This document shows positions 1-31,998 of a DNA stretch of 35,080 bases, piece after piece. Positions within the stretch are counted from its first letter, which is position 1; each line of letters opens with the position of its first letter. Made by a program: the position numbers and the translations under genes. Below the pieces are notes generated by a model that was not told the DNA's origin, made no database searches, and saw only the letters and a list, made by a program, of their open reading frames with translations. Origin of the DNA: Chiloscyllium plagiosum (lineage: Eukaryota); contig NC_057752.1 of NCBI RefSeq assembly GCF_004010195.1, forward strand, positions 6,897,474 to 6,932,553, written 5' to 3'.

Positions 1-180
1 CCCCCCCCCTCCTCTAGCTTATCTCTCCACGCTTCAGGCTCTCTGCCTTTATTCCTGATGAAGGGCTTTTGCCCGAAACGTCGATTTTGCCTGTCCTCGG
101 ATGCTGCCTGAATTGCTGTGCTCTTCCAGCACCACTGATCCAGAATCTGGTTTCCAGCATCTGCAGTCATTGTTTTTACC
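1..180 (+). mobile_element. Penelope-associated terminal repeat (pLTR-like) fragment
   Basis: Same family as 25541-25748, 28295-28735, 29573-29790, 31176-31260 and 31794-31998; carries a hammerhead core. Confidence 0.75.
52..86 (+). ncRNA. Minimal type-I hammerhead ribozyme motif (family 1)
   Basis: CTGATGA(55-61)-A-GGGC TTTT GCCC-GAAA-CGTC; predicted cleavage after C82. Stem I is weak (about 2 bp). Confidence 0.7.
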
Positions 181-377
181 TACAGCATTCCTCTAACTGC
201 CCATTGTAATCAAAATTTTCTTCCCTGTACATCAAGGGTCAACTGAGGAGAAAAAGAATACTACTAGCTTCTTATACTAATACAAAATTTAAAGAAACAT
301 CTCCTTGCTGATCCTCACACTCTCTCTCACTCTGCAATCTCTCTCTGTCTCTGCAATCTCTCTCCTGTAATAACCTG

Positions 378-1434
378 ATTTGGAGGTGCCACTGTTGCAT
401 TGGGGTGTACAAAGTTAAAAATCACACAACTCCAGGTTATCGTCGAGCAAGTTTATTTGGAAGCAGTAGCTTTCGGAGCGCTGCTCCTTCATCAGGTGGT
501 TGTGGAGTATAAGATTGTAGGACACAGAATTTAAAGCAAAAGTTTACAGTGTGATGTAACTGAAATTATATATTGAAAAAGACCTGGATTGTTTGTTAAG
601 TCTCTCATCTTTAACAGTTGGCATGTTGGTTTTGGTTCTTTCATATGTAAATTCCAGAACTTAAAGTTACATTCTCAAGTGACCTTTAACAATAGGTGTC
701 ATGTTGGCCCAGATAATGCATTGAAGATTTGAGGTGCCTGTGTGAGGCTGTCTGCGCCCCGGTGTTCAGACTGATTCTAATCTAAAAAAAGGGATCAACA
801 AAATCTTACATGGATTCATGCAGTTTTTGAGCAAAATAAAATGTAATTCTGCAAGTACAAATGCACCCCACAATCTTATGGGTGTGTGTGTGTGTGGGGT
901 GAGTATGAGTGTCTGTGAGAAACTGTATGTATGTGTATGAGTGTGAGTGTAAAGGGGTTAAGTCTGTGAGAGGGTGCATGTGAGAGTGTATGTGTGTGTA
1001 TGAGAGAGAGCTTGTATATGAGAGAGGGTCTGAGTGAGTGTATGGGTCTGTAGGTGTGTGTGTCTATATATTTGTGAGTGTGTGTCTGTGTGTAGTGCAG
1101 TGGAGTCACCTGTCATGTAACATGAACCCAAGGTCCCGGTTGAGGCCATCCACATGGGTACCGAACTTGGCTATCAGCCTCTGTTTGGCCACTTTGTGTT
1201 GTTACCTGTCCCGAAGTCTGCTTTGAAGACGGTCACCTGAAGGTCCAAGGTTGAATGTCCTGGACCGCTGAAGTGTTCTCCGACTGGGAGGGAACACTTG
1301 TCTGTTGATTGTTGTGCGGTGTCCATTCGTCCGTTGCTGTAGCCTGTGCTCGGTCTCATACGCTGTCTATCTCATACGCTGCAGGCAAGGATGCTCTGAG
1401 GCATGGTACATTGATGAGACCGAGCAGAGGCTAC
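378..1434 (-). mobile_element. Penelope-like retroelement 3' part (GIY-YIG endonuclease remnant, TG-rich tract, pLTR) with inverted 5' piece
   Basis: Minus strand reads CSLPVGEHFSGPGHS and QRLIAKFGTHVDGLNRDLGF; plus strand 1358-1433 reads YAVYLIRCRQGCSEAWYIDETEQRL (GIY-YIG motif). Frameshifted and contains stops. Confidence 0.8.
464..498 (-). ncRNA. Minimal hammerhead ribozyme motif (family 2)
   Basis: Minus strand: cac CTGATGA A GGAGC AGC GCTCC GAAA GCTA ctg. Palindromic AGCT stem III; first stem-I pair mismatched. Confidence 0.6.
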
Positions 1435-2869
1435 CCTACCCCGGACATCATGAGATTTTGCTTTTCACAGTAACCTTTGATGTAGCACTTCATCAAATGC
1501 CTTCTGAAAATCGTATCAACTTACACAGAAAATTCAGCACAGTGGCTGTACCAACACCCCATGGACTGTGGCAATTTGAGTAAGTGACTCATCAGCAGCT
1601 TCTCTGGGGCACATAGCGGCAGAGGCATTGGAGTGAAGGCCACATCTAAATTCTTTTAAAAGCCTCCAGTACTGCAATCCTCCCAGAACTCCAATCATAG
1701 CCTCCATTGTCAAAATTAAACTTTCTTCAATCCACCATTGCCAGCGATGTGGGCCTGAAGGTCTGGAATTTCCTCCCTAAAATACTCCACCATTCTCTTC
1801 AAGATGTTACTGAAAATCTATCACTTTGATCAAGCTTTTTTGACTGAGTAATGTAACTTCCTTTGGCTTGAGTTATCTTGGCACATCATACGTTATATAT
1901 AGTGTTGATATTCCCCAGCTAAAACTAACCCAAAATTAGAAAAAACCTTGAACTTGGGAGAACTGGTCATTCCCCTTTCTTTGTATAAGTGTTTTCCGAA
2001 AAAACTTAAAAGCCTTTTCAAGTAGATATTCCCAGACATATTGGAACCTCTGCCTTTACAATGCCTCTCAGAAAAAAAACAAGGACAGAATAACCTTGTT
2101 AAAGGAGCAGCATCATCACAACAGGTGTCAAATTTGTTGACAACACAAAGACATGCCAGAATGCAAGTTGCAAACAGAATACAAGGAGATTACAGAAAGA
2201 TATAAAAATGAGTGGGCAAAGATGTGGCAAGTGAAGAATAACTTGGAAAAATGTGTATTTTTCCATTTTGGCAAGAATAACAAAATCAGATCATCTATAT
2301 GGTGAAAGATTGCAGAGTTCTGACATGCAGATGCAATCTGGATGGCCCCATGCATTAATCACAGCAGGGTAGTTTGTAGATATAGCATCCACTTGCTAAT
2401 CAATCAGCATCCTCCTCTCATACCATATGAAATGTCAGTTTTCACTTTGAATTAGTATTCTTACAAACTGCATTGATGAGGACAATACAAAAAGCTTTGA
2501 CAAAATGTATTTTTTCCAGCAATACTTGAGTTCTTCAGTATTAGAAGATGAAACAGTTTAAGTTTTCATTCCTATAGTATATTATGGTTTAATCATGTAA
2601 AAGTCATATTATACTTGAATAGCCTAAGAAAAAAAAATTACTTTTAATTTTTCTAAAGGAAAATATCCAAACATTTCTCCATATCTTACACATGAAACCA
2701 ACTCATGCTCATCTTCAACTTTGATGATTTCAAGTTTTGCTGTATGTATTTCTTTCTTGGCCTCGCCAACTTCTGACTTCAAATGGAACTCCTACATTGT
2801 TAAAGCTGCCTCCAAGATAGAGACAGCATATTGTGTACTAAAGAGATATAGATGTGAGTTAAACACTAA

Positions 2870-3000
2870 ACAAAAATAAAGAACTTCAGATGCTGGAAAT
2901 CAGAAACAAACAGAAATTGTTAGGAAAACTCAACAAGTCTGCCAGCATCTGTGGAGAGAGAAACAGAGTTAACCTTTCGGGTCCAGTAGCCCTTCTTCAT
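2870..3000 (-). mobile_element. Penelope-associated repeat (family 3) with decayed hammerhead
   Basis: Minus strand aTGAAGA AGGG ctactgga CCC GAAAggtt; body similar to 10910-11021. Confidence 0.55.
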
Positions 3001-3029
3001 GCATGTTTGTTTATTGTTGTCACATGTTG

Positions 3030-3140
3030 ATATTTTCTAATCACCCCATTAAGAGATGTTATCACAAACTTCTGGAGCAGGTGGGACTTGAACCCAGGCC
3101 TCTTGGCTCAGAGATAGGGACACTACCACCATGCTACAAG
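3030..3140 (-). mobile_element. Short tRNA-derived SINE, solitary copy of the 20707-22088 unit
   Basis: Reverse complement has tagtgtccctatctctgagcc, B box GGTTCAAGTCC and the gattagaaaatat tail. Confidence 0.75.
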
Positions 3141-5469
3141 CATGCTTGCTATTACGTTATTTAATTATTAGCACAGGTTCTAGTCGCACACATTCATACT
3201 TATACAGCAAATGTTATTTTAACTGGCACTTGATAAACTGGCCAAAATTATATACCTCAAATACTGTCCAATTATGATATTTTTAAAACTTTATTTACCT
3301 CAGTATAAGCATGCTTGTTGTTCAATTGAATGACCACATGAAATATCAACAGTTGATTCAATTTCAAGTCAATTTCTCCTCAAGTACCGTGATATCCAAG
3401 TCGTCGGATGAGGGTGCAAGTGAGAAGGCCCTCTGCCAGTAAGTTTTGTTTAAGGCAAAGTTGCGTTATTATTTAAACTCCCTTGGAAGTTTCAAACAAG
3501 AATACACCTGAAGTCTGAAATGGTCAAATTCACAACGCATTACACTTTTCAAAATTGTTTCAGAAAATGCTAGCATGATTGGTAAAGACAGCATGTGTTG
3601 TTTATCCCTAATTGCTCTGGAGAATGTGGTATTGAGCCACGTTCTTGAATCCTGCAGTCCGTGGGGAGGTACCACAGAGTGATCAGGAAAGGTTCAAGAT
3701 ATGTGGCTTAGAGGGTAACTTACAGGTGGCAGTATTTCCACACGTTTGCTGCTCTCCTCCTTCTAAGTGGCAGAAGTCATGGGCTTGGAAGGTGCTGTGG
3801 AAGGGGTTTAGTATCTCATATAAAATACACACTGTCGCTTAGTACTGGTAAATAGATAGTGAATATTTAAGGTGACATATGGGGTGTCGATCAAGTGGGT
3901 TGCTTTGACTTAGATAGTGTTGAGCTTCTTGAAGTTTGTTAGGACCACACTTATCCAGACAGGTGCAGAGCATTCCATCACACATATTGTGTTTATCCTT
4001 AAAGCCTTTCCCCATACCAGAAATGGTTTCCTTGGAAGCACAACTCCCAGGACAGATGACCAACTTGTCAGTGTACTGATCCTCAAACTGAAAGCATGCA
4101 AATTGCAAACTCTAAATTAATGTAATTAATAAATAAATTTAATAAATCAGAACCAAGACAGAATATAATTTACAAAACATAATGTACAAGAGTATTAAAA
4201 GAAAATCAAAGTCCTTCTTTTCCTCCAAACACAGAGCTCAAACAATGAATAGCTCAGGATGCATGCCTTTTAGCACACTGGTTGAAACTGTAAATGTACA
4301 CGTGGAACTCAGTCTGTACAACAGACATGCTTGGGAAGCAAGTTGGTTGCTTAGAACTTTAAATATTACTGCATTTATATCAATATTTCAAATTTGTAAG
4401 ACCCATGGTCAAAGAGATAAAAATAGTTCTACATCCTTCAACAGTGATCTCCGGATTGCATCAAAGTTAATATTCAAAAATTATTCAGACTGTTTAAAAC
4501 CATTGCAAACTTGACTTCTTTTCAACCTTATTTTTAATATCTTTTACAATTAAGAATTGGACTATCAAAAAATTCAGTCTCTTTATACACAGTACAGTTC
4601 TTGCATTTATTAATCTGTAGGCATCCATACTAGAAATACTACAGATTTGTTACGTACTTTACTGGAAGTTGTTCAACTGTGATTTTTCCCAGTAATTACA
4701 AACTAGGCATCACAAAAACTGGGTCACGTTTACAGCATAGGACCAGGAAGTTAGATTAATCTCATCATGGAACTGATGATTTTGTACAAATTTGGAAAAA
4801 CAGAATTTTTACTGACTAATCCATAATTTTAACATTCCAGTCACTAAAACAGCGTCAGCTGAGGAGTTTGGTAGACATTTCGAACATTACCAAACCCCAC
4901 AAGCATAAAACAAAGAATTGTTCGGTTTTTGGTTTTTATTCTTCTTTGTCTGGTTGGGGTATTCTTCCTGGCAGTAGTGATAAAGAGAACCACCGACCAG
5001 TGATAATATTCTGGAGGTACAGGAATTCAGATCACTGCATTTTCAATGGCTGCCATAGAGCAGTTGCAAGCAGCTTTGGCCAGATTTCACTGTGCAATTC
5101 ATTGGTTGAATCACAGGGACTTCAATGGCAATTTGAGTGATGAACCTGTGCTGGCTGATGGGGAATATTTTGTGGATACATAAAACACATTCTCACCTTA
5201 ATCTTTGCGAACAACAGCAAGGTCTAAGCGATAGTTCTGTTACTAGTGAGCAATTTGGTAAGTTCCTCACTCATTTTGTGTTGCAAACATTCAGTCCAGA
5301 GTTCTCAATCTTTGGCATTACTTATTTCATAGCCCCATGGGTGGCTATTAAAGTCAGAGATAATATCAAGTTTGAATAAATGCACTTCGAAACACTGGCT
5401 TTGGCCATGTCAAATCTAGGACATTTTTGGAAATAGCAATCTTTAGCTCTTGCAGCTGAATCGCACTGG

Positions 5470-5820
5470 TCTAACATTGAGTATAGGAGTTGAGAGTCAT
5501 GCTGCGGCTGTACAGGACTTTGGTTAGGCCACTTTTGGAATATTGCGTGCAATTCTGGTCTCCTTCCTATCGGAACGATGTTGTGAAACTTGAAAGGGTT
5601 CAGAAAAGATTTACAAGGCTGTTGGCAGGGTTTGAACTATAGGGAGAGGCTAAATAGGCTGGGGCTGTTTTCCCTGGAGCATTGGAAGCTGGTGAGTGAC
5701 CTGGTTTAGAGGAGTATGGGCCAAATGCTGACAAATGGGACTAGATTAGGTTAGAATATCTGGTCAACCTGGACAAGTTGGACCAAGAGGTCTATTTCAA
5801 TGCTGTACATCGCTATGACT
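5470..5820 (+). mobile_element. CR1-type LINE 3' fragment
   Basis: Translates to LYRTLVRPLLEYCVQFWSP...LERVQKRFTR, followed by a 3' tail shared with 10040-10477. Confidence 0.8.
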
Positions 5821-5989
5821 CAAAGTAGCTTCTTCAACTGTGGTGAAGGAAAATATAACAAAATTCACGATGCTTTCTTCACACATTCCACATTCCCAAG
5901 CCACATTTTGGGTGGCAGTACTTATTCATGAGGCAGCCCCCACAGGTACAGTAATGGTTAGCATGTTGGCCATTTGAGTGTGATAGTAA

Positions 5990-8340
5990 TGGAACTGTGT
6001 CTTTGAACATGCAAGTATCTCAAAACAAAAATCACAGAATTGAGGGACTTTCCCAGGTGTTGGTGAGCCCTTGTCCCAAAACTTCTGGCAGTTTGCTTGG
6101 AGAACCAGACTACTATGGTTGCTTCTCTCAAGATAGCAAGATTGTTAAATCAATGTTCAGTTGCCAGGACAATGACATCAGTTGTGATTTCTCACTTAAT
6201 AGAGTGAGCCACGTGAAGGCTGCCATCTTCCACTCCAAATGACTGACTGGCAAAACTTTACATTAATATGTCAAATCTAGAAGCATCCCAAAAGTACAGC
6301 AAGAGACAATGGTCATTGGGAAATTGTTGTGAAGTTGAAGGCATGTACTGTTCCTTTATGTGAGAGAGTGAAAGCTGGCAAACACCTGTGATGTCACAGA
6401 GCATACTGGACACTTTGAAGATGTAACATTTGGGCTGTAACTTCGAGCGCTGTAACGGTACAGAGTTGTTTTCACAGCAGTTTGAATTTAACCAGTTTAA
6501 ATTATGCCCCAAGATACTAAAACCCGATCGAAGTTGAATTTTACTGTTTTGACAACATCAAACTAATGAGATGATCTGATGCTTTGGGGTATAAAAAGCA
6601 GGCATTTTGTACAGTTAGCCAGAGAAAGAGCACCTTCTGCCCTCAGACTGCCCACAAACCCTCTCTAAAAATGTACCTTTTTCATATGGAACATCTGTGC
6701 AGCAGAAGACCAAAGATGACCCAGGAGATGTACAAACAGAGGAAGTTTGACACCCGAAGACGACAACCGTGGTCTGGTTTTGAAAACTGATTTTCTATAA
6801 ATTTAATGGGGACTTTATTGGATCAGTATATTGTTATAGAGTGGGAGGTAGATAACAAATCTTTCAGAGAGAGGAGGCTTAGAGTCGTAAATAGTTGTTG
6901 TTTAGTGTTCTCTTTTGGAGGTAAAGAATAAAATTGTAATTTTTTTCTTTAAATAGTGGAATTTGGGTAGTTCTCTGTCACTCACACTTTAACAGATTAC
7001 AAGGTGAGATGAGTTTTTTTGTCTGTTTGGTTTAAATTAGCAGAAGGGTTTACCCAGTGTCCTGGGTAATCCCAAAAGTATAGCAAGAGACAATGGTCAT
7101 TGGGAAAACTGACCTATGACCCAGGAAGCTTGACGTCAATATTACTGATGCACAGGACATACTAAATTTTTGAATGCATCATCATCTGGCGAATCAGTCA
7201 TCAAGTGAATGAACCTCAAAGAACAAATAAATTCCAGCCAAAGTGCAGCTGTTGTGGCAAGATTTTGCCATTGCAGAACACACAGACTCAATTCCAGAAG
7301 AAAGCCAAAGACTGGCACAGCCTTTGTAGATCAGTCCTTGGTCTAAAGGACTGATGCTGAAAATCACAAAGGTCATTCCCTGCCTGAAAAAACAATGTGT
7401 GCTTGGGAAAATAAGAAATAGATAGCTAAGTGATCACTTGCGTGACAAAGTAAACTTCTACAGCTCCTCAACAAGGCTCATTACTTGTACTGATGTTCTT
7501 CAAGATTTAGACCACGAACATGCTACCAATGAAGTTGTGCAATTTGCATATGCAGATGATCTTGCCTTGCAAACAGCCTTCATGAACATCAAATCGACCT
7601 TGGATGGAATGTAAATTCTAATGGAACAATATTCCCAGAATTGGAATCTCAAATCAAATCTGGACAAAACCAGTTCCTGGATTTCATCACGACAACAGGA
7701 ACACTAAGCACACCCCAAAAATTGATCTTCTTTGCCAATATTGTGCAACATGATCTTGCACTTACATATTGTGGAGTGAAGTTGGACCATACGCCTAAAG
7801 AAGGTAGCCACTAATACAAAGATAAGGATGAACCTGTTTTTGAACATGGCAAGCACAAGCTGAAGAGCAATCAGCAGGATTGCACTGGACATCACAGATG
7901 GCTTTCAAGTACTATGGATCAGTACAGACCAGAAGTTGCCACACAGATCCAACTGAATAATGCAACGCAAGACTGAAACCCTCAGGTTGACTCAGAAGTC
8001 CCTTTGTAGTTCTACATCTCTCCATTCATTAGCTGCAATGCTAGAAAGTCCAAATAGAGTAAAATGAACATCTGTCCACCAACACACCAATAATATCCAT
8101 TAAAATTGCACAAGTTCCTTTGGACCCACATGCTTAATTTTTCCAGCAGTGTAACTTTAGTAATGAAAAGTTTACACAGTCAGATTGAACTATCAGAAAG
8201 AAAGAAACATCTTGGGAAAGATCAATTCATGTGAAAAACTAAACCATATTTGCACAAAACATGGCAGATTAGGATAACTGATACACAAACAGAAAGTTAC
8301 AAACTTGTCAATGTGTAATTATAGTCACCTGAAATTGACC
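5990..8340 (+). mobile_element. Old Ingi/Vingi-like LINE remnant, interrupted by an LTR-like insert
   Basis: IEGLS endonuclease-start motif near 6040, QFAYADDLAL RT motif near 7540-7570 and GVKLDHT near 7775. Heavily decayed; clade assigned from motif recall. Confidence 0.5.
6325..7060 (+). mobile_element. Solo LTR-like element
   Basis: Starts TGTT, with TATAAAAA near 6590 and AATAAA near 6927. Related copy on the minus strand at about 24380-24906 and a 3' piece at about 25200-25275. Confidence 0.6.
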
Positions 8341-8737
8341 ATGGAACACTGATTCAAATTTCCCAGGCTTAATGATCTGAGAACAAAATTATCTTTGCTG
8401 CTTACAGCTGCGTCAGCCATAACATTGCTGATATCAGTCATCCACCATGGGAAAATCACCAAGTGGAAGTTGGAGACATACCCACTGAATGAACAACATC
8501 AGCCTCAGTACACTGTGCAGCTTTTACTGGCTGGATTTAAAGTAGCCTGGAAATCTTACCCAACCACTGACGTTTAATAAACACAAAGCTTGAGGGAAAA
8601 CAGAGGCAATAAGCCAAGGAGGGTAAAAGAAGATTCTAGATGGAGACTTACTCAAAACAGAAATCAGGCACCAAAATCGGTTCAGGTTTCAAACTCAGTC
8701 CTATACTAAAATGGAACTTTGGTGCAAGTCATTACAG

Positions 8738-9013
8738 GGACAGCACAGTGGCTCAGTGGTTAACACTGCTGCTTCACATTGCCAGGGACCTGGGTTTGTT
8801 TCCAGTCTTGGGCGACTGTGTGGAGTTTGCACATTCTCAGTGTCTGTGGGGTTTCCTCCCACAGTCCAAAGATGTGCAGGTAAGGTGGATTGGCCATTCT
8901 AAATTGCCGTGGGAAATACAGGGATAGGGTAGGGGGTTAGAACACTCTTCAGAGAGTTGGTATGGACTCAATGGGCCAAATGGCCTACACCCACACTATA
9001 AGGATTCTATGAT
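8738..9013 (+). mobile_element. HE1/V-SINE-like tRNA-derived SINE
   Basis: A box TGGCTCAGTGG, core tgtggagtttgcacattctc...gggtttcctcc and a CR1-like tail. Confidence 0.8.
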
Positions 9014-9289
9014 TACAGTGTTTTAAAAAAAAAAATTCACTGTGCCTCTTAAATGGAGCTAGATTTTTATTGCGCACCACATTCTTTTCATAATCAGAAG
9101 CTGCACAGCAATACAAAGAGAAAAATAACAATTTTATTTTAATTTGACAAACAAGCTATCAATTCATTAACACTTTAGCATGACAGTGGCTTTGAGCAGT
9201 CACAGATGTCTATATATATATCCCACTTGGATTGACTAGCGTGATCTGAAAACAAACAGAACTTGCGTCCCAATTGCACAACTGAATGG

Positions 9290-10629: not shown

Positions 10630-10652
10630 GGCCTTTGGACACTCAAAAGCAC

Positions 10653-11314: not shown

Positions 11315-12802
11315 CTAACCACTATTAGGTTTGATTGTAATTTTCACCCGACTCCAGGAATTATTCAAAACACCACGTAAATTCCAGATGGGTGCAACGG
11401 TATCAGGTTGCACGTTGTAGTTGTTGTCCACAGCTTTGCAGATTATCTCCAAGTTCTTCTGGCCCTTTGGCAGAGGCATAGTGAGCTGCCACAGTTTCCA
11501 TGCCCATGCCTGACCGGCATCCTGCTTCTCCCCAGTTAAGTCAGCTACTTTCCAAGTCTTCCCACCATCTAATGAGACATCGACTCGAATCACTTCTTGG
11601 CCACCTCCACTCCATGCATAACCTTTCACCGTGATCTCTTCATTGTCTGCAGAGATATAATCATTATTGCAAGGTGTCGTTATGGCAGACTGGATGGGGA
11701 GTTCTTGGATTGCTGGCGCAGTACTGAAGTCAACAGTATCCCAATCTACAGAGGGAGAAAACCCTTTATAGTCATTCACCTGCCAATGGCTCTGGCTTTC
11801 TTCTTTACTTACAATGATCTTGCTCAACCACTTCACATTGCGTGCTCCAACCACTCCAGGCACAATGACACGCAGGGGAAAGCCGTGATCCCTGGATAGA
11901 TCTTCACCATTCATTTCATATGCAAGTAGCACATCACCATCTTTAGCCAATGCCTTGCGAATGGAAATAGAGGCCCCATAGGGGATCCCGGTCAGGTCTT
12001 TATCAAGTCCCTCAAATTGGACATGCTTGGCATTTGTGTTCTCTGGTAGCCCTGCATACTTAAGGACATCAGAAAGCTTGACCCCTCTCCAGGTAGCATT
12101 ACCAATAGCTGCCATCCCCCAATTCAGTCCCTTTACCTGACGCACAGCATTCATTTCAGAGCGCCGATTCCCTGCACATTGCAATGTAGCAGTTATTGTG
12201 TGCTTTGGAAACTTGGTCTTGAGATCATCAAGAGTTAGTTGGATGGACTTCAGTCCCTCTCCTATAACCTGCAAACGGTACGTTTTTGGATCAACTTCTG
12301 GTACAGGCAAATGATTTCGTTTGAAGAAAATTTCATTTGGGGTAATGTAATTTTCAGACAGGAGTTCTACTGGTGGTTCTGCATTAAATGGCTTTAAGCT
12401 ATTCACCTTCAAAACAGGGTGTCTCAGGGGTTCATTTCCATAAGGATCATCCACATCCATGATTGCCTGCTTTTGATCTTCTGGGCTCAGCTCTCCAATT
12501 CTGTACTCTTCAAGTATGGAGTAAACATGTTCTTGATTGTGGACTGCATACATTGCCCAGAATGGTTCAATGGCACCACCAGCAGCAAGCATGATCTTAT
12601 CCCCTCCGGGATGTAGGTCCACAAACTTTGTAATATCATACACACTAGTTTTATAGGTGACCCATACCCCATCTGCAAGAGATTTATGTTTGGCAACATC
12701 CTGCCTGGTATAGATTGAGTTAGTTGGTTTCACCTCATTGCCCAATGCTGACACAGTTTGGCTGGTCAATTCTGTGGTAGTTTTAGGCTCTGCTTGCTGC
12801 AC
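11315..12802 (-). CDS. SUOX: Sulfite oxidase, last coding exon (cytochrome b5 heme domain, Moco domain, dimerisation domain)
   Basis: 495-codon ORF with b5 motifs ([21 protein letters not shown]), [10 protein letters not shown], the Moco-ligating [35 protein letters not shown] and WNLRGVLNN. It begins at a splice acceptor (tcttctag|GTG CAG, phase 0), so the listed start 'M' is really Val. Stop TAG at 11317-11315. Confidence 0.98.
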
Positions 12803-20706: not shown

Positions 20707-22088
20707 CAGTGTAGTGTACCTAACTGAGCCAGAAGGCCCAGGTTCAAGTCCCAACTGCTCTAGAGGTGTGCAATAATACCTGAACAGGTTGATTAGAAAA
20801 CATTTGTGCCAAGACAAATAAATAGCCATAAATAACATTGAGTAGGTAATGTTGGTGTAGTGATAATATCACTGTACTAGTAATCCACACACTCCCCAGG
20901 CTAACATTATGGATTCACCATGACAAATGGTGAACTTTTAACTTAGTTACTAAGAGGCACTTGTGGTGCAGAGATAGGTCCCCTGGCTCAGAGATAGAGA
21001 CACTATGTTCAAGCCCCACCACTCCAGAATTGTGTCATAACATCTTTGAACAGCTGGATTAGAATATCCACCAGATGGCTGTTAAGAGCTCTTGTGGTAC
21101 GACCGTAGTATTCCTACTTCTGAGCCAGAAAGGTCCAGGTTCAAGTCCCACTTTCCTGGAGGTGTCAAAACATGTCTGAATAGGTTGATTAAAATAACTA
21201 CCACAGAATCACTGTAATAGGTACGTGAAACCTGACAAGCCAGGTGGCTCCTCAGAATTGGATTGGAATGCTTGCCTGCTAGAGAAGAAATGCTTATCTG
21301 AACTAATTTCATCAGGAATGGAAAAATCTTTGGGCTCTGAGGTATAGTGGTAGTGTCTCTACCTGTGGGCCAGAGGCCAAGGTTCATGTCCTATCTGCTC
21401 CAGAGGTGTGTCATAACACATCTAAACAGATTGATTTGAAGTATCTAGAGGGAAGAGTCTTGTCTGCTAAAGGTTCATGTAGAACAGTGGTAGTGTCCCT
21501 ATCTCTGTGCCTGAAGATCTGGATTCAAGTTTCACCTGGCCCAGAGGTATCATGCCATATCTGAATAGGTGGATTAAAAATAAACTAGAAAGTTAAGGTG
21601 GTATTTGATAGCATTTATGGATGAAACTTCTATTTCTGCAAAAAGGGGCTTTTGTGGTGCAGTTGTCGATCCCCACCTTTGAGCCAGGAGCCCCAGGTTT
21701 AAATCCCACCTGCTTCAGAGGTCTACCATAACATCTCTGAACAAATTTATTAGAAAACCCATCAGCCTAACTTCTATCCTAGGAAGCCAATTTTTGTTTT
21801 AGGGGAGGGAATGGTGCAATTGTAATGTTACTGGGCTGGTAATTCAGAGGCCCAGTTCTTTAGGAGGCTTTTGTGGTGCAGTGGTATTGTGCCTACCTCT
21901 GGGCCAAGAGGTCCAGGTTCAAGCCCCATCTACCCCATGTGTCATAACATCTCTAATAGGTTTGATTAGAAAATATCTACCAGAGGGCTCATGCAGTGCA
22001 GTGATAGTGTCCCTACCTCTGAGCCTGAAGGCCTGGGTTCAGAGATGTGTCATAACACGTCTGAACTGGTTGATTAGGAAATATATAC
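20707..22088 (+). repeat. Cluster of about 8 co-oriented ~120-bp tRNA-derived SINE units
   Basis: Units at about 20707, 20954, 21085, 21332, 21471, 21645, 21864 and 21983, with A box TGGTGCAGTGG-like, B box GGTTCAAGTCC and tail ctgaacaggttgattagaaaa. Confidence 0.85.
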
Positions 22089-22331
22089 CAGGAATAACTC
22101 CTGAGCTATTCTGCAAAAAACTTTCAACATTCTCTTGAAGGGCAGACAGAGGTGTGCATTTTAACTGAAAACAGCACCTCTGACAATGATTCTGCAGTGT
22201 CATCAGAGACAAAGCTCATACTATTTTCCCCAAGAGTATGTGGGGTAAAGCCCTTATTAAAATGAATTATTTTACAACAGCCAAATCAATGCATTACGTG
22301 TAAAATAACCAAACGATGGAATTACCAGTAC

Positions 22332-22957: not shown

Positions 22958-23455
22958 AGCTGAGGAAGAACGATCAGTCCTCAGCAGAGGCCTTACCTTC
23001 ATCCCCCCTCTGCTCTTGGATCAATGAATTCGACACATGTTGTGACATTAAACACCTCTTCTGCCACCTCCAGGCTTACTTTTTCCACCAAGACTCCCAC
23101 CCACCTTCTGAGGACCCCTTCTCCCACCTCCAACACACCCCACCCACCTGGACACCCCAAGCCGGTCTGTTACCCACCCTTGATCCCATCGCCACTCCCT
23201 AATCACCCGACACCTGGAGGAAGAACGCGTCATCTTCCACCTTGGGACCCTCCAACTCTACGGCATCAACGTGGATTTCACCAGTTTCCTCATTTCTCCT
23301 CCCCCCACCTTATCCCCAGTTCCAACCTTCCAACTTGGCACTGCCCTCATGACCTGTCCATCTTCCTTCCCAACTATCCGTTCCACCCACCTCTCCGACC
23401 TACCACTATCATCCCCACCTTCACCTACCTATCGCACTCTCAGCTACCTTATCCT
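22958..23455 (+). mobile_element. Internally deleted Penelope-like retroelement
   Basis: ERSVLSRGLTFIPL..INEF..AYFFHQDSHPPSEDPFSHLQ..WTPQAGLLPTLD (N-terminal to RT) joined to RHLEEERVIFHLGTLQLYGINVDFTSF (C-terminus) and a C/T-rich tail. Confidence 0.7.
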
Positions 23456-24325
23456 TCCTATAATGCGGTGACCAGACCTGCATGCAATACTCCAAGTGCG
23501 GCCGCGCCAGAGTTTTGTACAGCTGCAGTATAACTTCATGGTTCCGAAACTCGATCCCTCTATCAATAAAAACTAACACACCTTCTGAACAACCCTATCA
23601 ACCTTGGTGGCAACTTTCAGGGATCTATGTACCTGGACACTGAGATCTCTCTGCTCATCTACACTACTGAGAATCTTACCATTAGCCCAGTACTCTGCAT
23701 TCCCGTTACTTCTTCCAAAGTGAATCACCTCACACTTTTCCACATTAAAATCCATTTGCCACCTCACAGCCCAGCCCTGCAGCTTATCCATGTCCTCTGT
23801 AACCTGCAACATCCTTCGGCACTATCCACAACTCCACCAACCTTAGTGTCATCTGCAAATTTACTAACCCATCCTTCTATGCCCTCAACCAGGTAATTTA
23901 TAAAAACGACAAACAGTGGACCCAAAACAGATCCTTGCAGTACCCCACTAGTAACTGAACTCCAGGATGAACATTTCCCATCAACCACCACCCTCTGTCT
24001 TCTTTCAACTAGCCAACTCCTGATCCAAACCACTAAATCACCCTCAATCCCACGCCTCTGTATTTTGTGCAATGGGCTTATCATGGGGAATCTTATCAAA
24101 TGCTTTACTGAAATCCATACACACCACATCAACCGCTTTACCCTCATCCACCTGTTTGGTCACCTTCCCAAAGTACTCCAAGGTTTGTGAGGCACGACCT
24201 ACCCTTCACTAAACTGCGTTGACTATCTCTAAACATCTCTATTTCCAGATGATTATAAATCCTATCTCCTTAACCCTTTTCACACATTTACCCACAACCG
24301 AAGTAAGGCTCACTGGTCTCTAATT
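23456..24325 (-). mobile_element. CR1 LINE reverse transcriptase fragment
   Basis: [30 protein letters not shown] and WQMDFNVEKCEVIHFG; frameshifted. Confidence 0.92.
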
Positions 24326-24379
24326 TATTCTTTAACTCCAAGAAAAAAAAACGAACTATCTACACTGTAATCCTCCTTT

Positions 24380-24906
24380 GTCCGATCAATTTGTCTACCT
24401 CCCACTCTACAACACTATACTGATCCAATAAAACCCCCGATTAACTTTTAAAAAAAAAAATCAATTTTCAAAAACCAGTCAGGTGTTTATTTTCCTCTGT
24501 AGATTTTTCCTGGGTCTTTTCTTCAGTCTTCTGCTGCACAGATTTCATATGAACAGGTACCTTTCAGAGAGCATGTCTGCAGTCAGTTTGTTGGTGCTCT
24601 TTTCCACTCTGGCTAACTGTTCAAAATGCCCAATTTTTTTTAACTCCAAAACATCGGATTGGCTCATTGAATTTTACTGGTTTGATGTCATCAAAACAAA
24701 ATTTGATTGGAATTTGGTTTCTTGGGGCATAATTTAAACTGGCCAAATTCAAATTTGTTGCGTACCATAACAACTCTGCTCAGCTATTTGTTTCACAGCC
24801 AAATGTTACATTTTTAAATTTTTCAGCACACTCTGTGCTTGTAAAGTCCTTGCCAGCTTTCACTCTCTCTCTTAAAGGTACAGTACACACCTGCAACTTT
24901 ATAACA
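24380..24906 (-). mobile_element. LTR-like element related to 6325-7060
   Basis: Minus strand starts tgttataaagttgcaggtgtgtactgtaccttt and shares gagagtgaaagctggcaa and ccagtttaaattatgccccaaga. Confidence 0.65.
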
Positions 24907-25390
24907 TATCCCTTAATTCTTTGAGATATGAAAACATCTCAGTCTTGAATTATTATACTCCACAACCCCTTTAGTATCCATCCACTGTGGTAGACTGAAT
25001 TCAGTAAAAGCTGGAATAAAAAGCATAAAAGCCCATCTACTTTGCTAATGCTCTTTCATGAAGGAAACCTTACCTGGTCTGGCCTGTGACTTCAGACCCA
25101 CACAATGCATTTGATACTTGGATAGACATTAAATGCTGACCTAGTCAGTGATACTCAAATGCCATGAACAATTTTTTAAAAATCAAATTCTCCTCATACT
25201 TTTACAGATTACGAGGAGAGGTGAGCTTTAATGTGTCTCTGGTTTAAATTAGCAGGGGAGTTTACCCATGTCGTACCAAATGGCACAACCAGAAAAGTGA
25301 AATTGTAGCAGAAAATCACCCATGATCATCTTGAATGGTTGAGCAGGCTCAAAGAGCTGTAACCTACTTCTTATGTTGGCTCTTATATTG

Positions 25391-25820
25391 AAAACAACAA
25401 ATGCTGGAAATCACAGTGCAGCATCCATGGTTGGTGGGGGGGTTGGTGGTGGGAGGGGAGAGACAGAGACAGATAACGTTTTGAGTCAAGATGACTCTTC
25501 ATCAGAACTAGAGTGTGGAGGAACACCATTTAAATTTTAGGCAAAAGTGAGGACTGCAGATGCTGGAGAATAGAGTCAAGAGTGTGGTGCTGGAAAAGCA
25601 CAGCAGGTCAAATAGCATCCAAGCAGGGGATTCAACATTTTGGGCAAAAGATTACTGATGAACGGCTTTTGCTAAAAAAAAAATCAATTATCCTGCTCCT
25701 CAGATGCTGCCTGACCTGCAATGCTTTTCTAGCACCACACTCTCGACAATTTAATTTTAGCTTGCTCGCTCGCCATGGATGCTGCCTGACCCACTGTGAC
25801 CTCCAGCATTTGTTGTTTGT
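25391..25820. mobile_element. Nested inverted Penelope-associated repeats with decayed hammerheads
   Basis: Outer arms at about 25391-25430 and 25773-25820; inner family-1 inverted insert 25541-25748 flanked by AATTTTAG (25533-25540, 25753-25760). Confidence 0.7.
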
Positions 25821-26098
25821 AGTACAGATTCCAGGATCTGCACTAATTTGGTGCCAGTAAGTTTCAATGTTCCAAGGTCACAAATACTGCAGAAATGCAA
25901 GTCTTGCAGGTTTGGTTTACACTTTTCCTCAAGTGAGCAGCATTTGGAAAAGGGAGGCTACAGTGAGGGGAAAAGATAGAATGGGGGGGGGGGGGGGGGT
26001 AGAAAAGAAAGGGGGAATCAAAACCATCGCTTCCAACAATACAGAAAATAGCATTTTCCAGAAATAAAACTACATTCATTTTCTTAACGAAATTGGAG

Positions 26099-26099
26099 C

Positions 26100-26135
<36 letters not shown>
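26099..26135 (+). repeat. (GAAA)n(GATA)n microsatellite
   Basis: Seen directly. Confidence 0.9.
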
Positions 26136-26136
<1 letters not shown>

Positions 26137-26599
26137 TATTTGATAGCACAGCAGAGCCCCAGAAGTGTAGAGGTGGATATGGTACAGACCACCGTGTCAG
26201 CTTGCAGAGATCATGACTGTTCTTGGCACTGCTGACCACAAGGAATCCTACATCAGCTCAGTGAACCTGACATTTCAGAACCACTTTCGTGATTAAAAGT
26301 TGAAATTCCAAAAAGAATACACGCGTGATGATCAGTTGTTTCTTTTACAGAAAAGATGGTTTTTTTAAAAAAAATGCCCAATGGTTTAACCCTCTCATTA
26401 AACTCAGTTTGAAGTTTCAGGACAACATTGCCAAATAAAATGGGTTCAATTGCAATATACTTTAAAACTTTTAACGTTTAAGTCGAAATACGTTAAAAAA
26501 AAACTCGTGATTTAAAATGTTTCGTTGCTTCTGCCTTGATAAAAACCTTTGAGCATCATCATTAAGAAAATATTCAGACTTTCAAATCCCCTCAGAAAC

Positions 26600-26770
26600 C
26601 ACCCCTCACCCAAGCCCAACGACACTTTACCAGACGATTCCACACGACGCGTCATTCGATTGACACGGGAGCAGCATGCGCATGCGTGGTATCAGGCCAG
26701 CGCCTGTGACGTCTATTTATTTATGGCTTGAGCGCGAGCCGCGTTGATCCAGATGTCGAGTGTGATGACA
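26600..26770 (-). promoter_or_regulatory. CpG-rich SUOX promoter and probable non-coding exon 1
   Basis: Non-repeat CpG cluster. Palindromic GCATGCGCATGC (26674-26685) contains an NRF1-like TGCGCATGCG; CRE-like TGACGTC at 26707-26713. Minus-strand donor candidates TGG|gtgagg (exon end 26610) and CTG|gtaaag (exon end 26631). The ATG exon has an acceptor, so an upstream exon is required. Confidence 0.65.
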
Positions 26771-27409
26771 GTAACTGGAAGAGCAATGTGCAGCTGCACT
26801 GTTTCCCGGACAGTTCGTGGCTGTCTGAGGAGTTTATATACATGTATTCCCCATAGATTATTTTAATGTAGAACAAAAAAAAACATGCTGTAAAAATTGA
26901 GTTAGTCTACCGCTATTTGTAGAGGGAAAGCCTGACCTGTCAATTATATCCGGCGGGTTTTTTTTCTTATTCAGATTTTGTTTTGGCGATTTGAATACTC
27001 CGTCTGACTCCCACTCGAGGCCTGTGAGCTCTGGCTACGATGCTATTTCAGTGAAGTTCAACATAAGCCTGAGGAACATTTCAACTCGTTTCCTTTTTCT
27101 TTGCAGATTTGTTTTTACCTTTTTCTTACAGCAATTGTTCATGAGTCTGTCATTCACACCTCACCTAAACCTATCTTTTGTACCAATTACTGACCTCTTT
27201 GCTTTGCATGATCAACCCTGTAGGCATTTAATCTCTCTGAACTTGCCACACTTTTTGCCCTTTTATTGCCTTTAAAATATGTTATCTCTTCAATTTTTCT
27301 CAGTTTTGACAGAAGGACATCCACCTGAAATTTTAGCTGATTTGTCTTTCCATAGATACTTTATTGCTGGAACAGCACAGCAGGTCAGGCAGCATCCAGG
27401 GAACAGGAG

Positions 27410-27445
27410 ATTCGACGTTTCGGGCACAGGCCCTTCTTCAGGAAT
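27410..27445 (-). ncRNA. Minimal hammerhead ribozyme motif, intact
   Basis: ATTC CTGAAGA A GGGC CTGT GCCC GAAA CGTC GAAT: 4-bp stem I, 4-bp stem II, palindromic ACGT, GUC triplet. Confidence 0.75.
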
Positions 27446-28358
27446 GAGCAGAGAGTGTTCAGCAGATATCACTGGGATGCTTTTTTGCCATTATTATGGC
27501 AATAATGTTTTTTTCAAATTTAAAAAAAAGTTATGATATTTCAGCTACTTTAATCCCATGTGTATCACTGATGATTTGTATTTACTCTGTGGAAATTTTA
27601 ATTGAGTAGAAGATTTTACTGCATTTTACTTTCTGATTTGCTGTTTGAGAATACTTCAGTGTAATTGGCTGCCAACTCCCTGCGGTGATATCACTGTTAC
27701 TGTATGCCTAGTGTTTGTCTTGATCTTGCACATATCAAGAAAGGGAAACTTCATGCCTCAGAGATCACTAGATAGCAGAAAATCCCTTTAATACTTCAAA
27801 GTACTCTTTTGGTATGATCCTAGATATTGAATATTGTTAGATATTATTACTGGAGCGAATCATAGATTTACATTTAAATAGTTCCCATTTCTGTCTTTGT
27901 TCACTCCTTTCCTCAGCAATATTTTGTGTTTGATTTTGTCTACTTTCTGTGGTTTTATTTACCCTAATGAAGAAGAGCATATCTTCTCAACATCACAACT
28001 ATTGATCTCACCCTGCTTGGCTGTTGTATGGAACCCCCTACGTGTTAACCCCTTAAAGCCAAATACATAACAATATTGTCAAATTTGATGGAATTTTAAT
28101 GCATTTACTTTAGGGGAAATTTGGCATGTTAATATGCTGCAGTTTTTCTTATCTGCGATGTTTTGTGTTATGTTGCTGAAAATATTACTGATGAAATACT
28201 TAGCAGTTGTAGTAAAATCATGCGTATACTTAGGATGAAGAAGATTATGAGTACCACATATGCTTGGTCCAGTTCTTGTTGGATTCATTTGGATATCAAA
28301 GTTGAAACTTTATTGCTGGAACAGCACAGCAGGTCAGGCAGCATCCAGGGAACAGGAG

Positions 28359-28394
28359 ATTCGACGTTTCGGGCACAGGCCCTTCTTCAGGAAT
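28359..28394 (-). ncRNA. Minimal hammerhead ribozyme motif, intact
   Basis: Identical to 27410-27445. Confidence 0.75.
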
Positions 28395-28609
28395 GAGCAG
28401 AGAGTGTTCAGCAGGAGAAGATAAAAGGTAGGGAGGAGGGACTTGGAGGAGGGGCGTTGGAAATGTGATAGGTGGAAAGAGGTCAAGGTGAGGGTGATAG
28501 GTCGGAGTAGGGTGGAGGCGGAGAGGTCAAGAAGAAGACATTTCCAACTCCCCTCCTCCAAGTCCCTCCTCCCTACCTTTTATCTTCTCCTGCTGAACAC
28601 TCTCTGCTC

Positions 28610-28645
28610 ATTCCTGAAGAAGGGCCTGTGCCCGAAACGTCGAAT
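28610..28645 (+). ncRNA. Minimal hammerhead ribozyme motif, intact
   Basis: Identical motif on the opposite strand (right arm of the palindrome). Confidence 0.75.
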
Positions 28646-28879
28646 CTCCTGTTCCCTGGATGCTGCCTGACCTGCTGTGCTGTTCCAGCAATAAAGTTTC
28701 AACTTTGATCTCCAGCATCTGCAGACCTCACTTTCTCCTTTTCCATAGATACTGCCAGGCTTGGTGAGTAAGTGAGGATTTTCAGTTTTCATTAGAAATT
28801 TTAGGAACTTAATCATAGGATGAATGAGCAAACATGGTGAATCAACCTTCCCACATTCACACGTCCATTATTCGTAGTC

Positions 28880-29572
28880 AGAGAGTCTACAGCACAGATA
28901 AAGGTTCTTTGGCCCATTGAGTCCACACTGGTCAAAAACAACCATCTAACTATTCAAATTTCATGTTCCAGCATTTGGCCCATATCCATGTGCATCATAG
29001 CATCACCAGTGCACATCAAAATATTTCAAAAAAGACATGAAAGTTTTTGCCTCTGCCACTCTTACAGGTAGTAGTTCCAGATTCCCACCACCCTCTGGGT
29101 GAAAACAATTTCCTCACATCCTCTGTAAACCTCCTGCCTTAAATATATGCCTATGATCATTGATCCCTCAAACAAGAAGGAAAGTTTCTTCCCATTTCCC
29201 CTGTTTGTACCTCTCATAATTTTGTACACCTCAATCATATCCCCTCTCAATCTCCTCTGCTCCAAGGAAAACAACCTCAGTCTTTCCAACCTCTTCTCGT
29301 TAGTAGAACTCTTCAATCCTGGCAATATCCAGAACTGCACACAATACTCTAGCTGTGGCTTACCAATGTTTTATAAAGTTCCAGCATCACCTCCCTGATA
29401 TTAAACTCTATGTCTTGTCTAATAAATGCAAGTATCCCACATGCCTTCTTAACCACTATCTATCCCACTACCTTAAGGAATCGGTGTTCATGCACACTAA
29501 GGTCCCTCTGTTCTTCAGTGCTTCTCTGTCCCAAGGACATCACCTCACACTTATCTGAATTGAATTCCATTT
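28880..29572 (-). mobile_element. CR1 LINE 3' fragment
   Basis: LERLRLFSLEQRRLRGDMIEVYKIMRG..FTQRVVGIWN and QMEFNSDKCEVM. Confidence 0.85.
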
Positions 29573-29897
29573 GGGAGAAAGTGAGGACTGCAGATGCTGG
29601 AGACCAGAGTTGAAAAATGTGGTGCTGGAAAAACACAGCAGGCCAGGCAGCATCCGAGGAGCAGGACAATCGACGTTTCGGGCATAAGCCCTTCTTCAGG
29701 AACGAGGCTGCTGTGTCAAGCGGGCTGAGGTAAAAGGTAGGGGGGAGGAAGAAGATTGCAGGTCAAGAGGGCGGTGTTGAATCCGGGGGTTGGGACTGAG
29801 ATAAGGTGAGGTACCGAACTACCCAAATGGCCTCCTTCTTCAAAGACTGCAATTTCCCCTCCGACGTGGTCGACGATGCTCTCCACCGCATCTCCTC
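29573..29897. mobile_element. Penelope pLTR (minus) joined to an inverted ORF fragment (plus)
   Basis: Minus-strand hammerhead at 29669-29702 (CTGAAGA A GGGC TTAT GCCC GAAA CGTC); plus strand about 29815-29897 reads RTTQMASFFKDCNFPSDVVDDALHRIS. Confidence 0.7.
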
Positions 29898-30403
29898 TTT
29901 TTGAAGGTAGAACCAAAGTATGTATTTAATTGGTCTGCTATCTGTTTATTCCCCATCATAACTTCCCATGTTTCTGACTGTACCTTACTTCACATCTTTC
30001 CTATTGTGTGGTGACCATAACTCTACTAAATACTCTAAATACTCTACATGAAATTTAACCAGTCTTAGATAACTCCCTTTTGCCTCAGAATATGTGTAGT
30101 TTCTGTTCTTATCAGTTTAATTGCTGATGTCTCCCGAACGTGGGAGTGTTTGTATTAAATGGATTTTTGGAGCAGGGAGATGGGTTAAGGGCTTGCTCTG
30201 TCCTCTCCATGTATCAGCCTGGTATTGCAGTGTTTCCAGGAATGGTGCACCCAATGCCTACCCAAGTTCAAAAGCAGGTTAATGTAATGTGAATCTCTTG
30301 CCTTTACTAGTTTGCCGTGTTGATTGCAGTGATTGTTCCATCTATTATCTTTTCAGTTGCATGAAACTATCATCTTTTGTTATGAGTTTTCTGTCTTATA
30401 AAA

Positions 30404-30698
30404 AGGGCGGCACGGTGGCACAGTGGTTAGCACTGCTGCCTCACAGCGCCAGAGACCCGGGTTCAATTCCCGCCTCAGGCGACTCTCTGTGTGGAGTTTG
30501 CACATTCTCCCCGTGTCTGCGTGGGTTTCCTCCCACAATCCAAAAATGTGCAGGTTAGGTGAATTGACCAGGCTAAATTGCCCATAGTGTTAGGTAAAGG
30601 GGTAAATGTAGGGGAATGGGTCTGGGTGGGTGGCGGGTCGGTATGGACTTGTTGGGCCGAAGGGTTTGCTTCCACACTGTAAGTAATCGAATCTAATC
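30404..30698 (+). mobile_element. Young HE1/V-SINE-like SINE
   Basis: gggcggcacggtggcacagtggttagc (A box), GGTTCAATTCC (B box), V core, CpGs retained, (TAATC)-like tail. Confidence 0.88.
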
Positions 30699-31793
30699 CC
30701 TGCTCTTGTACCTTCGTCCTATAGGATACTGTCTCCTTTATTGACAACTATCTTTAACTTTCTTGCCAACTTTAATGACTTATGCATGTGTACACCCAGG
30801 TCTTTTGCACTCCCTTTAGAATAGTATTCTTTATACTGTCTCTCCATGTTCTTTGTATCAAACCTCATGCTTCTTTGCACTGAATGTTATCTGCCACCTA
30901 TTTGCCCATTCTACCAATGTGTCAATATCCTTTTGAAGTTCTACACTGTTCTCCTCTGTTTACAATTCTTCCAAGTTTTCTGTTGTCCACAAACTTAGAA
31001 ATTTTGCTGAACAATACTTTCAGGGATATGGAGTGAATGGAGCTAAGATACAGACATTCATATATGTAACACTCAGGAGGAAAATGGTGGACAGCTTTAA
31101 ATTTAAGAATTAATTCCTCATTAGTTTATTTTTAATCTAAAAATAGTTTGTGTTCAATATTTGCTTTGATTCTGCAGGGCTTTTGCCCGAAACGTCGATT
31201 TTACTGCTCCTCGGATGCTACCTGAACTGCTGTGCTCTTCCAGCACCACTAATCCAGAATTTTATGGTCAATTAATATTCTGACATTGCAGTAAGTTTGT
31301 GTGCAGCATATCATAAAATATATGCATTCTTCTTGTGTTTCACTTTGGATTAATAGGTTAAGAAGTAATTTCTTATGGAATGTACTTTATTACCTTCAAT
31401 GTCCTCAGTTCCATTTGGCATGGACTCAAACGATTGTGGTTCCAAGCTTTGTTGCAGAACTTCACCCTGACACTTCATAAATTATTTAATGAGTGCTGCA
31501 GGTTAGAGATTCTATCTTCAGTTGAGATTTTTAAAGCAAAGGCTTCATGTATCTGTTCTGCGAGATGTAAAAGATCCCATAGTCTAACTTGAAGAACGAC
31601 AGGGTGTCTGACCCACCACTGTCCCTTAAAACTTAAAATCAGGCAGACTGTTCTAACTAATTACATTAACTGTGTACTGCATTTTTCAAGACATTGAAAG
31701 CAATTGATTAGTTTTAATGCATCTTGGAACTTCTAGAGGATGGTGATACAGGAACATAGGAACAGGAGTAGGCTATTCAACCCCTACAGCCTA

Positions 31794-31998
31794 GGCAAAA
31801 GTGAGGACAGCAGATGCTGGAAATCAGAGTCTAGATTAGAGTGGTGCTGGAAAAGCACAGCAGGTCAGGCAGCATCCGAGAAGTAGGAAAATCGATGGTT
31901 CGGGCAAAAGCCCTTCATCAGGACTGAAGAAGGGCTTTTGCCCGAAATGTCAATTTTCCTACTCCTCGGATACTGCCTGACCTGCTGTGCTTTTCTAG
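31794..31998. mobile_element. Head-to-head inverted Penelope pLTR insertion with 13-bp TSD
   Basis: CCCCTACAGCCTA (31781-31793) and CCCCGACAGCCTA (31999-32011); back-to-back hammerhead cores at about 31890-31952, both mutated. Confidence 0.8.

Follow-up and report, generated by a model that had tools for sequence, protein, structure and literature searches.

What accounts for the repeated appearance of the hammerhead ribozyme core in a stretch of a shark chromosome? The stretch in question, hereafter the window, comprises 35,080 nt of the 3.56-Gb genome of Chiloscyllium plagiosum (NC_057752.1). An original prediction, made from its letters only, described it as densely populated by minimal type-I hammerheads of Penelope-like elements (PLEs), possibly spread by short retrozyme-like units. 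We find it probable that the motifs are indeed minimal type-I hammerheads, located in the end module of endonuclease-bearing PLEs, and that the copies in the window are 5'-truncated insertions of this module, likely inert as ribozymes where they now stand. The kind of element and its insertion architecture are already published; what is new here is the very high copy number.

Two patterns were used to establish that the motifs are real. The loose pattern (CTGANGA-N8-30-GAAA) matches the window 17 times, compared to a mean of 3.44 and a maximum of 9 in 100 shuffles, none of which reaches 17. The strict descriptor combines the minimal-hammerhead core with a paired stem II and a palindromic helix III. 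It matches six times in the window and 20 times in an unselected sample of 403,789 non-N bases (about 404 kb), which consists of the window and three contiguous genome stretches chosen blind to the hammerhead. Twenty shuffles of the whole sample gave a single match in total, or about 0.05 expected per 404 kb. A chance origin of the motifs is excluded.

The six strict matches are the six complete cores of the original prediction (Table 1). Each contains CUGANGA, a single bulged base, a fully Watson-Crick stem II, GAAA and an ACGU or AGCU palindrome followed by C or A, that is by H at position 17. Genuine remnants were also found near all positions at which decayed or truncated copies had been proposed (2969-3000, 25476-25505, 25538-25741, 31173-31260 and 31790-32002). 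Where about 11 motifs had been estimated, we count 13 hammerhead-derived motifs in the window. They represent four stem-II classes there and at least five genome-wide, where at least three families had been predicted.

The genomic load of these classes is very large, as had been anticipated. Searches of the whole genome with exact patterns retrieved 81,470 intact motifs of class 1 (GGGC/GCCC), 18,482 of class 2 (GGAGC/GCUCC) and 2,307 of class 4 (GUUACCU/AGGUAAU), which sum to 102,259 as a minimum. With CpG positions relaxed, class 3 (GAGUCA/UGACUC) was found 38 times, with four intact motifs, and class 5 (GGGUC/GACCC) 2,848 times; these two are older classes. Reversed-pattern controls gave 0 in every case. 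The strict descriptor yields a density of the same order as the exact counts, with 38 matches per Mb outside the window and 50 per Mb with the window included. Class-1 copies (stubs) occur at 166 per Mb in the 404-kb sample, which suggests, by extrapolation, about half a million of them genome-wide. At 10 copies in 35 kb, the window carries about 1.8 times the class-1 density of the rest of the sample.

All five classes share the same architecture. A bulged base follows A9 in every class (A in classes 1, 2, 3 and 5, U in class 4), and at 10.1-11.1 class 4 has a G-U pair where the other four have G-C. Helix III is reduced, as predicted, to a palindrome (15.1-16.1) without a loop, which can pair only between two copies; it reads ACGU in classes 1, 3, 4 and 5 and AGCU in class 2. 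In intact exemplars, stem II has 4-7 bp with every pair canonical, and stem I has 3-6 contiguous pairs that are specific to the class (AUUC/GAAU, CAC/GUG, AGCU/AGCU, CCA/UGG and UCAGUU/AACUGA). Stems I and II thus differ in sequence among the five classes and stay complementary, as had been noted for stem II; this comparison is supportive and not blind, since classes 1-4 had been picked out with an eye to pairing. Paired stems, the bulged base and related features are those given by Cervera and de la Pena as evidence of non-randomness (PMC4209133).

Endonuclease-bearing PLEs are defined by a reverse transcriptase with a C-terminal GIY-YIG endonuclease, located between terminal repeats that hold hammerheads (PMC4209133; PMC8557442). 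For classes 1 and 2, the link between hammerhead and such coding sequence is direct. At one class-2 locus (L004), two hammerheads in direct orientation, 2,517 nt apart and within a 229-nt direct repeat, flank a frameshifted open reading frame (ORF). The longest piece of this ORF (410 aa) has 107 homologous proteins (best E=1.8e-116), most of which carry RVT_1 and many also GIY-YIG among their precomputed domains, and the whole ORF covers residues 1-749 of one 881-aa homologue (P0001) by tblastn. The ORF remnant in the window at 1121-1357(-) matches residues 798-877 of the same protein (tblastn E=1.3e-9). For class 1, a long copy from another part of the genome (L006) served as architecture reference. 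Each of its two arms has an ORF that encodes a GIY-YIG domain (22.9 bits, E=1e-4) and stops about 160 nt short of the hammerhead, on its upstream side; this ORF can be aligned to the last 230 residues of database proteins for which RVT_1 and GIY-YIG are annotated. The GGGC/GCCC motifs of the window all lie in one repeat, as determined by self-comparison and alignment. In longer copies, about 75-160 nt separate the reverse transcriptase/GIY-YIG ORF from the hammerhead downstream of it; in the one full-length element examined, the next ORF starts about 110 nt beyond the hammerhead.

Three loci with hammerhead pairs 1-2.4 kb apart (L003, L005 and L007) gave no Pfam match on the scanned ORFs (two of the 10 of at least 120 aa) and no tblastn match on the loci, and were set aside. 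A Pfam search of the whole genome for GIY-YIG gave a single scored match, on a 1-kb contig, and was uninformative.

The endonuclease ORF of the class-1 reference (L006:2571-3320(+)) also contains CNRRRCNTC, a CX4CX2C arrangement, about 40 residues before LLYIGETG. A zinc-finger-like linker of the CX4CX2C type has been described for Neptune-type PLEs, and its position before the GIY-YIG domain hints at a Neptune affinity for class 1.

How these elements insert can be read from the ends of their copies. With four reference copies as queries and positions counted from the first core base, we identified 67 class-1 copies in the 404-kb sample. Their 5' ends are strongly clustered: 42 of the 67 copies start between -12 and +9, 4 at +10 to +27 and 11 beyond +32, while 10 start at -13 or further upstream and, where the sequence allows, run into the 3' untranslated region (UTR) or the ORF. 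Several of the apparent starts downstream of the cut site belong to other classes, of which only the conserved downstream block aligns. The 3' ends fall into three groups, some of them assigned by hand from coordinates: at the end of TTCCAGCA (0 to +4, the short end), about 15 nt further, and about 48 nt further (the full tail). From hammerhead to 3' end, a copy spans from about 50 nt with a short end to about 125 nt with a tail.

Nearly half of the class-1 copies (30 of 67) form 15 head-to-head pairs. These pairs are asymmetric: 13 of the 15 have a full tail on one arm and a shorter end on the other, and of the remaining two, one carries the full tail on both arms and the other on neither. 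At least eight pairs are flanked immediately at their outer ends by direct repeats of 9-17 nt (with one mismatch in two cases), and a 9-nt direct repeat flanks the long reference copy L006. Because the direct repeats bound whole pairs, each pair is one insertion. One pair has a private 19-nt duplication common to both arms. By identity of arm to arm, three of eight pairs are reciprocal best matches, the subfamilies being too uniform for discrimination. The features of endonuclease-bearing PLE insertions are all present among the copies: truncation at the 5' end, a partner that is inverted and itself 5'-truncated, a tail on one side, and duplication of the target site.

Head-to-tail arrangements were looked for in the same material. 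No array at unit spacing occurs among the 67 class-1 copies, nor among the matches listed for class 1 (the first 100 genome places). The only close direct pair in the sample, 134 nt apart, consists of two copies matching different references. Long class-1 copies, which reach into the 3' UTR or ORF, bear at least four loop-2 sequences (TTTT, TTAT, CTGT and TCAT).

We examined RNA data for traces of the repeats. In about 2% of one run of poly(A) single-cell RNA, 1,568 reads matched the repeats, in either orientation, and the unique DNA in between had none; a second raw RNA run yielded no reads. Among the repeat reads, 95% continue into unrelated flanks and therefore derive from copies embedded in other transcripts. 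No back-joined, unit-length reads are listed in this RNA, and there is no RNA record among the listed database entries that hold a stretch of the window.

At window position 29694 (run X19), 57 RNA reads share one foreign flank beside a copy that starts 5 nt into the core. A single flank shared by so many reads indicates a truncated stub somewhere in the genome within a well-expressed transcript.

These observations bear on the proposal that the short units are non-autonomous and retrozyme-like. In its fuller form, units of about 85-135 nt would constitute a separate SINE-like (short interspersed element) or retrozyme-like family that is transcribed independently and depends for its mobility on PLE enzymes acting in trans, possibly via circular RNA. 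The very high copy number would suit such a family, as would the start at the hammerhead 5' edge shared by 42 of the 67 copies, which a defined short RNA would give; moreover, a 2026 preprint derives animal retrozymes from PLE terminal repeats, with one cartilaginous fish included (10.64898/2026.07.22.740005). However, the copies are solitary or head-to-head, and in the absence of tandem units, and with a long parent for every subfamily, the retrozyme-like reading is not supported. Nor did we identify an internal promoter, and the poly(A) single-cell RNA yielded neither junction reads nor end pile-ups. Given the target-site duplications, the variable 5' ends and the long copies with several loop-2 sequences, the stubs look like by-products of longer PLEs and not a separate lineage. 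We consider a separate family unlikely.

If the stubs are by-products of longer PLEs, the hammerhead itself may still have been maintained in the elements that produced them. In unselected class-1 copies, the share of the major base is 0.91-1.00 (mean 0.96) at the 18 hammerhead positions outside CpG, N7 and loop 2, and non-CpG core positions reach 0.94-1.00 among 35-53 copies. Over the next 49 nt, 14 of the 48 non-CpG positions fall below 0.86 (Fisher p=0.007). The variable sites within the motif are N7 (share 0.53, A or U) and the third base of loop 2 (0.50): subfamilies differ exactly where the hammerhead tolerates change. Furthermore, core C3, G5, A6, G8, G12, A13 and A14 are invariant across the five classes with their differing stems. 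An invariant core next to an N7, a loop 2 and stems that vary with pairing kept points to selection on the source elements, and we infer from this pattern that the hammerhead fold has been under selection there.

A number of results nevertheless weigh against reading the motifs as PLE ribozymes. First, classes 3 and 5 are tied to PLEs indirectly, by a downstream sequence block that they have in common with class 1. Second, the Rfam hammerhead families (type I, II, III, HH9 and HH10) did not match at the gathering threshold, and searches of the whole window at E<=10 and of the 131 bases around 28614-28641 were equally negative; this outcome is expected, because the motifs have no helix III loop. 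Third, GATGCTGCCTGA and TTCCAGCA, which form two blocks on the downstream side of the hammerhead, are conserved equally to the core, so that conservation is not specific to the ribozyme; the predicted excess of core conservation over the flanks is thus seen relative to the next 49 nt and lost relative to these blocks. Fourth, the third pair of stem I is a U-U mismatch in 75% of class-1 copies. Fifth, double-hammerhead pairing is feasible, with energies of -11.9 to -15.1 kcal/mol, yet two monomers folded separately do better, at -19 to -29 kcal/mol. Sixth, no class-1 copy in the sample starts at the cut site (+28 to +32), and the predicted RNA ends at that site did not appear: the 1,568 poly(A) reads show no pile-up there or elsewhere on the repeats, in a library that captures cleavage ends poorly. 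Finally, published work reports low in vitro activity of such motifs (PMC4209133) and insertion in vitro by hammerhead mutants (PMC11167929).

Folded as a monomer, the copy at 28538-28738(+) forms stems I and II only. The minimum-free-energy dimers obtained by cofolding were rejected as models of the active form, being domain swaps and not double hammerheads.

Such motifs cleave as dimers according to the literature; in the material studied here self-cleavage is putative, with no copy starting at the cut site and no pile-up of RNA ends. Both absences agree with the published view of a weakly active motif and of a template RNA that has not been processed. We regard the dispersed copies as most likely inert relics, and any function belongs to the source elements.

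We propose the following course of events for PLE end modules. As published PLE biochemistry leads us to expect, both DNA strands would be cut by the PLE protein, which would begin reverse transcription at one or another of several internal sites of the RNA; these alternative sites would produce the short, +15 and tailed 3' ends. Copying would then proceed back through the hammerhead, and most products would end at its 5' edge. Judging from the comparison of copies and classes, the hammerhead would most likely act where PLE RNA is multimeric or paired, either through dimer-dependent self-cleavage or through RNA pairing.

The downstream blocks lie at 243-254 and 267-274 of the class-1 reference, for example at 28659-28690(+) in the window, and are common to classes 1, 3 and 5. 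Located next to the short 3' end, they probably serve the initiation of reverse transcription. UGCUG...CAGCA can form a small hairpin right at this end, which may be a signal for starting reverse transcription.

A more specific scheme is conceivable, and we regard it as doubtful. Here the hammerhead would mark the 5' end of the RNA copied by the PLE enzyme, and the miniature insertions would be run-off cDNAs of this RNA, which would measure 85-135 nt and extend from the upstream edge of the hammerhead as far as the internal start sites of reverse transcription. The palindromic helix III would pair two RNAs in one dimeric particle, such that both cut DNA ends prime and head-to-head palindromes result; the main job of the hammerhead in animals would then be RNA pairing and end definition, not cutting.

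That the hammerhead-like sequence never cleaves in vivo and is kept for a non-catalytic reason (as a template RNA start, a protein-binding site, or a palindromic RNA-RNA pairing that lets both DNA ends prime) would fit 5' ends that cluster at the upstream edge of the motif and not at the cut site, the two-armed form of half of the copies, the lack of RNA ends at the cut site, and published results in which mutation of the hammerhead leaves insertion normal, reads do not end at the cut site, a dimeric protein is predicted and both strands are extended (PMC11167929). This reading seems quite improbable even so, as all five classes, with their different stems, keep the exact catalytic core unchanged, which a sequence that only pairs or binds would not need, and plant, fungal and protist PLEs carry canonical or monomer-stable hammerheads, one of them active in vitro (PMC4209133).

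Attribution of the motifs to the end module of endonuclease-bearing PLEs accords with what is described for such elements. Minimal hammerheads occur in metazoan PLE terminal repeats, also as opposite-strand pairs 100-700 bp apart (PMC4209133), and were treated by Lunse et al. 2017, as cited in PMC6765202. The motifs described here are alike in their core, the one extra base between 9 and 10.1, the G10.1-C11.1 pair (in four of our five classes), the absence of a helix III loop, the palindromic 15.2-16.2 and the short stem I (PMC4209133; PMC6765202). They are also alike in forming several consensus families per genome and in occurring mostly as solo motifs from truncated PLEs with some opposite-strand pairs (PMC4209133). 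What differs is the scale and the pairing: coelacanth has about 4,000 motifs and Xenopus tropicalis about 9,000 (PMC4209133), whereas three exact patterns gave 102,259 here, and about half of the sampled class-1 copies are paired, many with directly abutting arms.

The insertion architecture has published counterparts as well. PLE insertions are heavily truncated at the 5' end, have an inverted and truncated copy alongside the unit, and bear a tail at just one of their ends (PMC8557442). An Anolis PLE cuts and extends both DNA strands in vitro and has two internal reverse-transcription starts, the spacing of which equals the tail; its hammerhead lies at the junction of repeat and ORF and is dispensable for insertion in vitro (PMC11167929). 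The copies of the shark resemble these insertions (Craig et al. 2021, PMC8557442; Frangieh et al. 2024, PMC11167929) in their 5' truncation, inverted copy, one-sided tail, discrete internal 3' ends and hammerhead at the junction of terminal repeat and ORF start. They differ by a tail of about 48 nt, compared to a published 30-40 nt, and by a third discrete position of the 3' end, some 15 nt beyond the short one. In addition, most are miniature, at about 85-135 nt per arm, and end at the hammerhead 5' edge, which we did not find stated in the accessible parts of PMC8557442 and PMC11167929. Animal non-LTR (non-long terminal repeat) retrozymes share the type-I hammerhead, the weak palindromic helix III and the relation to PLE terminal repeats (Cervera and de la Pena 2020, PMC7229834; Li et al. 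2026 preprint); they differ in that they are head-to-tail tandem repeats expressed as circular RNAs (PMC7229834). A search of the available literature found no paper on hammerhead ribozymes in shark PLEs.

These results put the genome of a vertebrate in the group with the largest known loads of hammerhead motifs. Knowledge of hammerhead catalysis is unchanged by them. Repeat annotation is affected because Rfam is blind to these motifs, and assembly is affected because palindromic pairs form long hairpins, which also draw spurious microRNA matches. The huge number of independent insertions, with their starts, ends and arm relations, constitutes a natural data set for PLE integration, a process that is still poorly understood; the clustering of 5' ends at the upstream edge of the hammerhead and the one-tail rule in pairs both bear on it.

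The copies in the window are listed in Table 1. About 2.3 kb of N closes the 10-kb stretch upstream of the window and adjoins window base 1; this is either a gap or withheld sequence, and it covers the 5' part of copy A. MicroRNA-like Rfam matches at 28407-28596 were rejected, as they merely reflect the long hairpin of the C/D pair.

Table 1. PLE-derived copies in the window, with the state of their hammerheads and ends.
Feature	Position	Strand	Details
Class-1 PLE tail, copy A	4..182	+	Intact hammerhead 55-82, loop UUUU, N7=U; full 3' tail; 5' side runs into N beyond the window
Class-2 5'-truncated PLE, about 1 kb	376..1357	-	ORF C-terminal remnant 1121-1357; hammerhead 467-495 with intact core, GGAGC/GCUCC stem and AGCU, stem I degenerate; tail extends to about 376, where the ORF begins in the full-length relative L004
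Old class-5 remnant (GGGUC/GACCC type)	2925..3000 (approximate bounds)	-	Core CATGAAGA; one stem II pair broken; helix III lost; downstream GATGCTGG block kept
Class-3 remnant	25390..25510 (lower bound approximate)	-	Hammerhead 25476-25505 with perfect GAGUCA/UGACUC stem and ACGU; G12 changed to A at a CpG (CpG decay); downstream GGATGCTGC...TTCCAGCA block kept
Decayed class-1 head-to-head pair I/J	25538..25741	both	CpG-decayed cores; arm I 25538-25650(-) truncated within stem II, full tail; arm J 25655-25741(+) core kept, GAAA/ACGU lost, short 3' end
Solitary class-1 copy B	27355..27465	-	Intact hammerhead 27414-27441, loop CUGU; start 24 nt upstream of core; end 10 nt beyond short 3' end
Young class-1 head-to-head pair C/D	28290..28738	both	Arm C 28290-28539(-), intact hammerhead 28363-28390; arm D 28538-28738(+), intact hammerhead 28614-28641; arms 98.9% identical over 177 nt; full tail on D only; both reach 76-149 nt upstream of core
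Class-1 copy E	29570..29748	-	Intact hammerhead 29672-29699, loop UUAU; full tail; upstream, repeated sequence goes on to at least 29850
Class-1 copy F	31173..31260	+	5'-truncated within core, no CUGANGA; end 15 nt beyond short 3' end
Class-1 head-to-head pair G/H	31790..32002	both	Arm G 31790-31933(-) full tail; arm H 31924-32002(+) short end; cores 2 nt apart; helix III broken by CpG decay in both arms; flanked by direct repeat CCCC[T/G]ACAGCCTA

The window has several other features. A match to the U2 small nuclear RNA at 30069-30255(+) (120.7 bits, E=3.6e-24), 320 nt from the 5' side of copy E, has a 6-nt deletion in stem-loop I, and its branch-point-binding GUAGUA reads GUAGUU; it is probably a pseudogene or variant copy. 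An inverted repeat pair of about 600 nt and 70% identity connects 6325-6932 with 24324-24906, and the ORF beside it (23764-24159(-)) has a weak RVT_1 match (E=7e-4) that belongs to another retroelement, unrelated to the PLE copies. Repeats of about 100 nt with 66-78% identity form an array at 20711-22099, with a related copy in opposite orientation at 3026-3138, and a tandem duplication at 34431-34677(+) consists of two adjoining 125-nt units of 99.2% identity. Finally, a 495-codon open frame at 11315-12802(-) carries cytochrome b5, molybdopterin-oxidoreductase and Mo-co dimerisation domains, and represents a sulfite-oxidase-like gene in one large exon.

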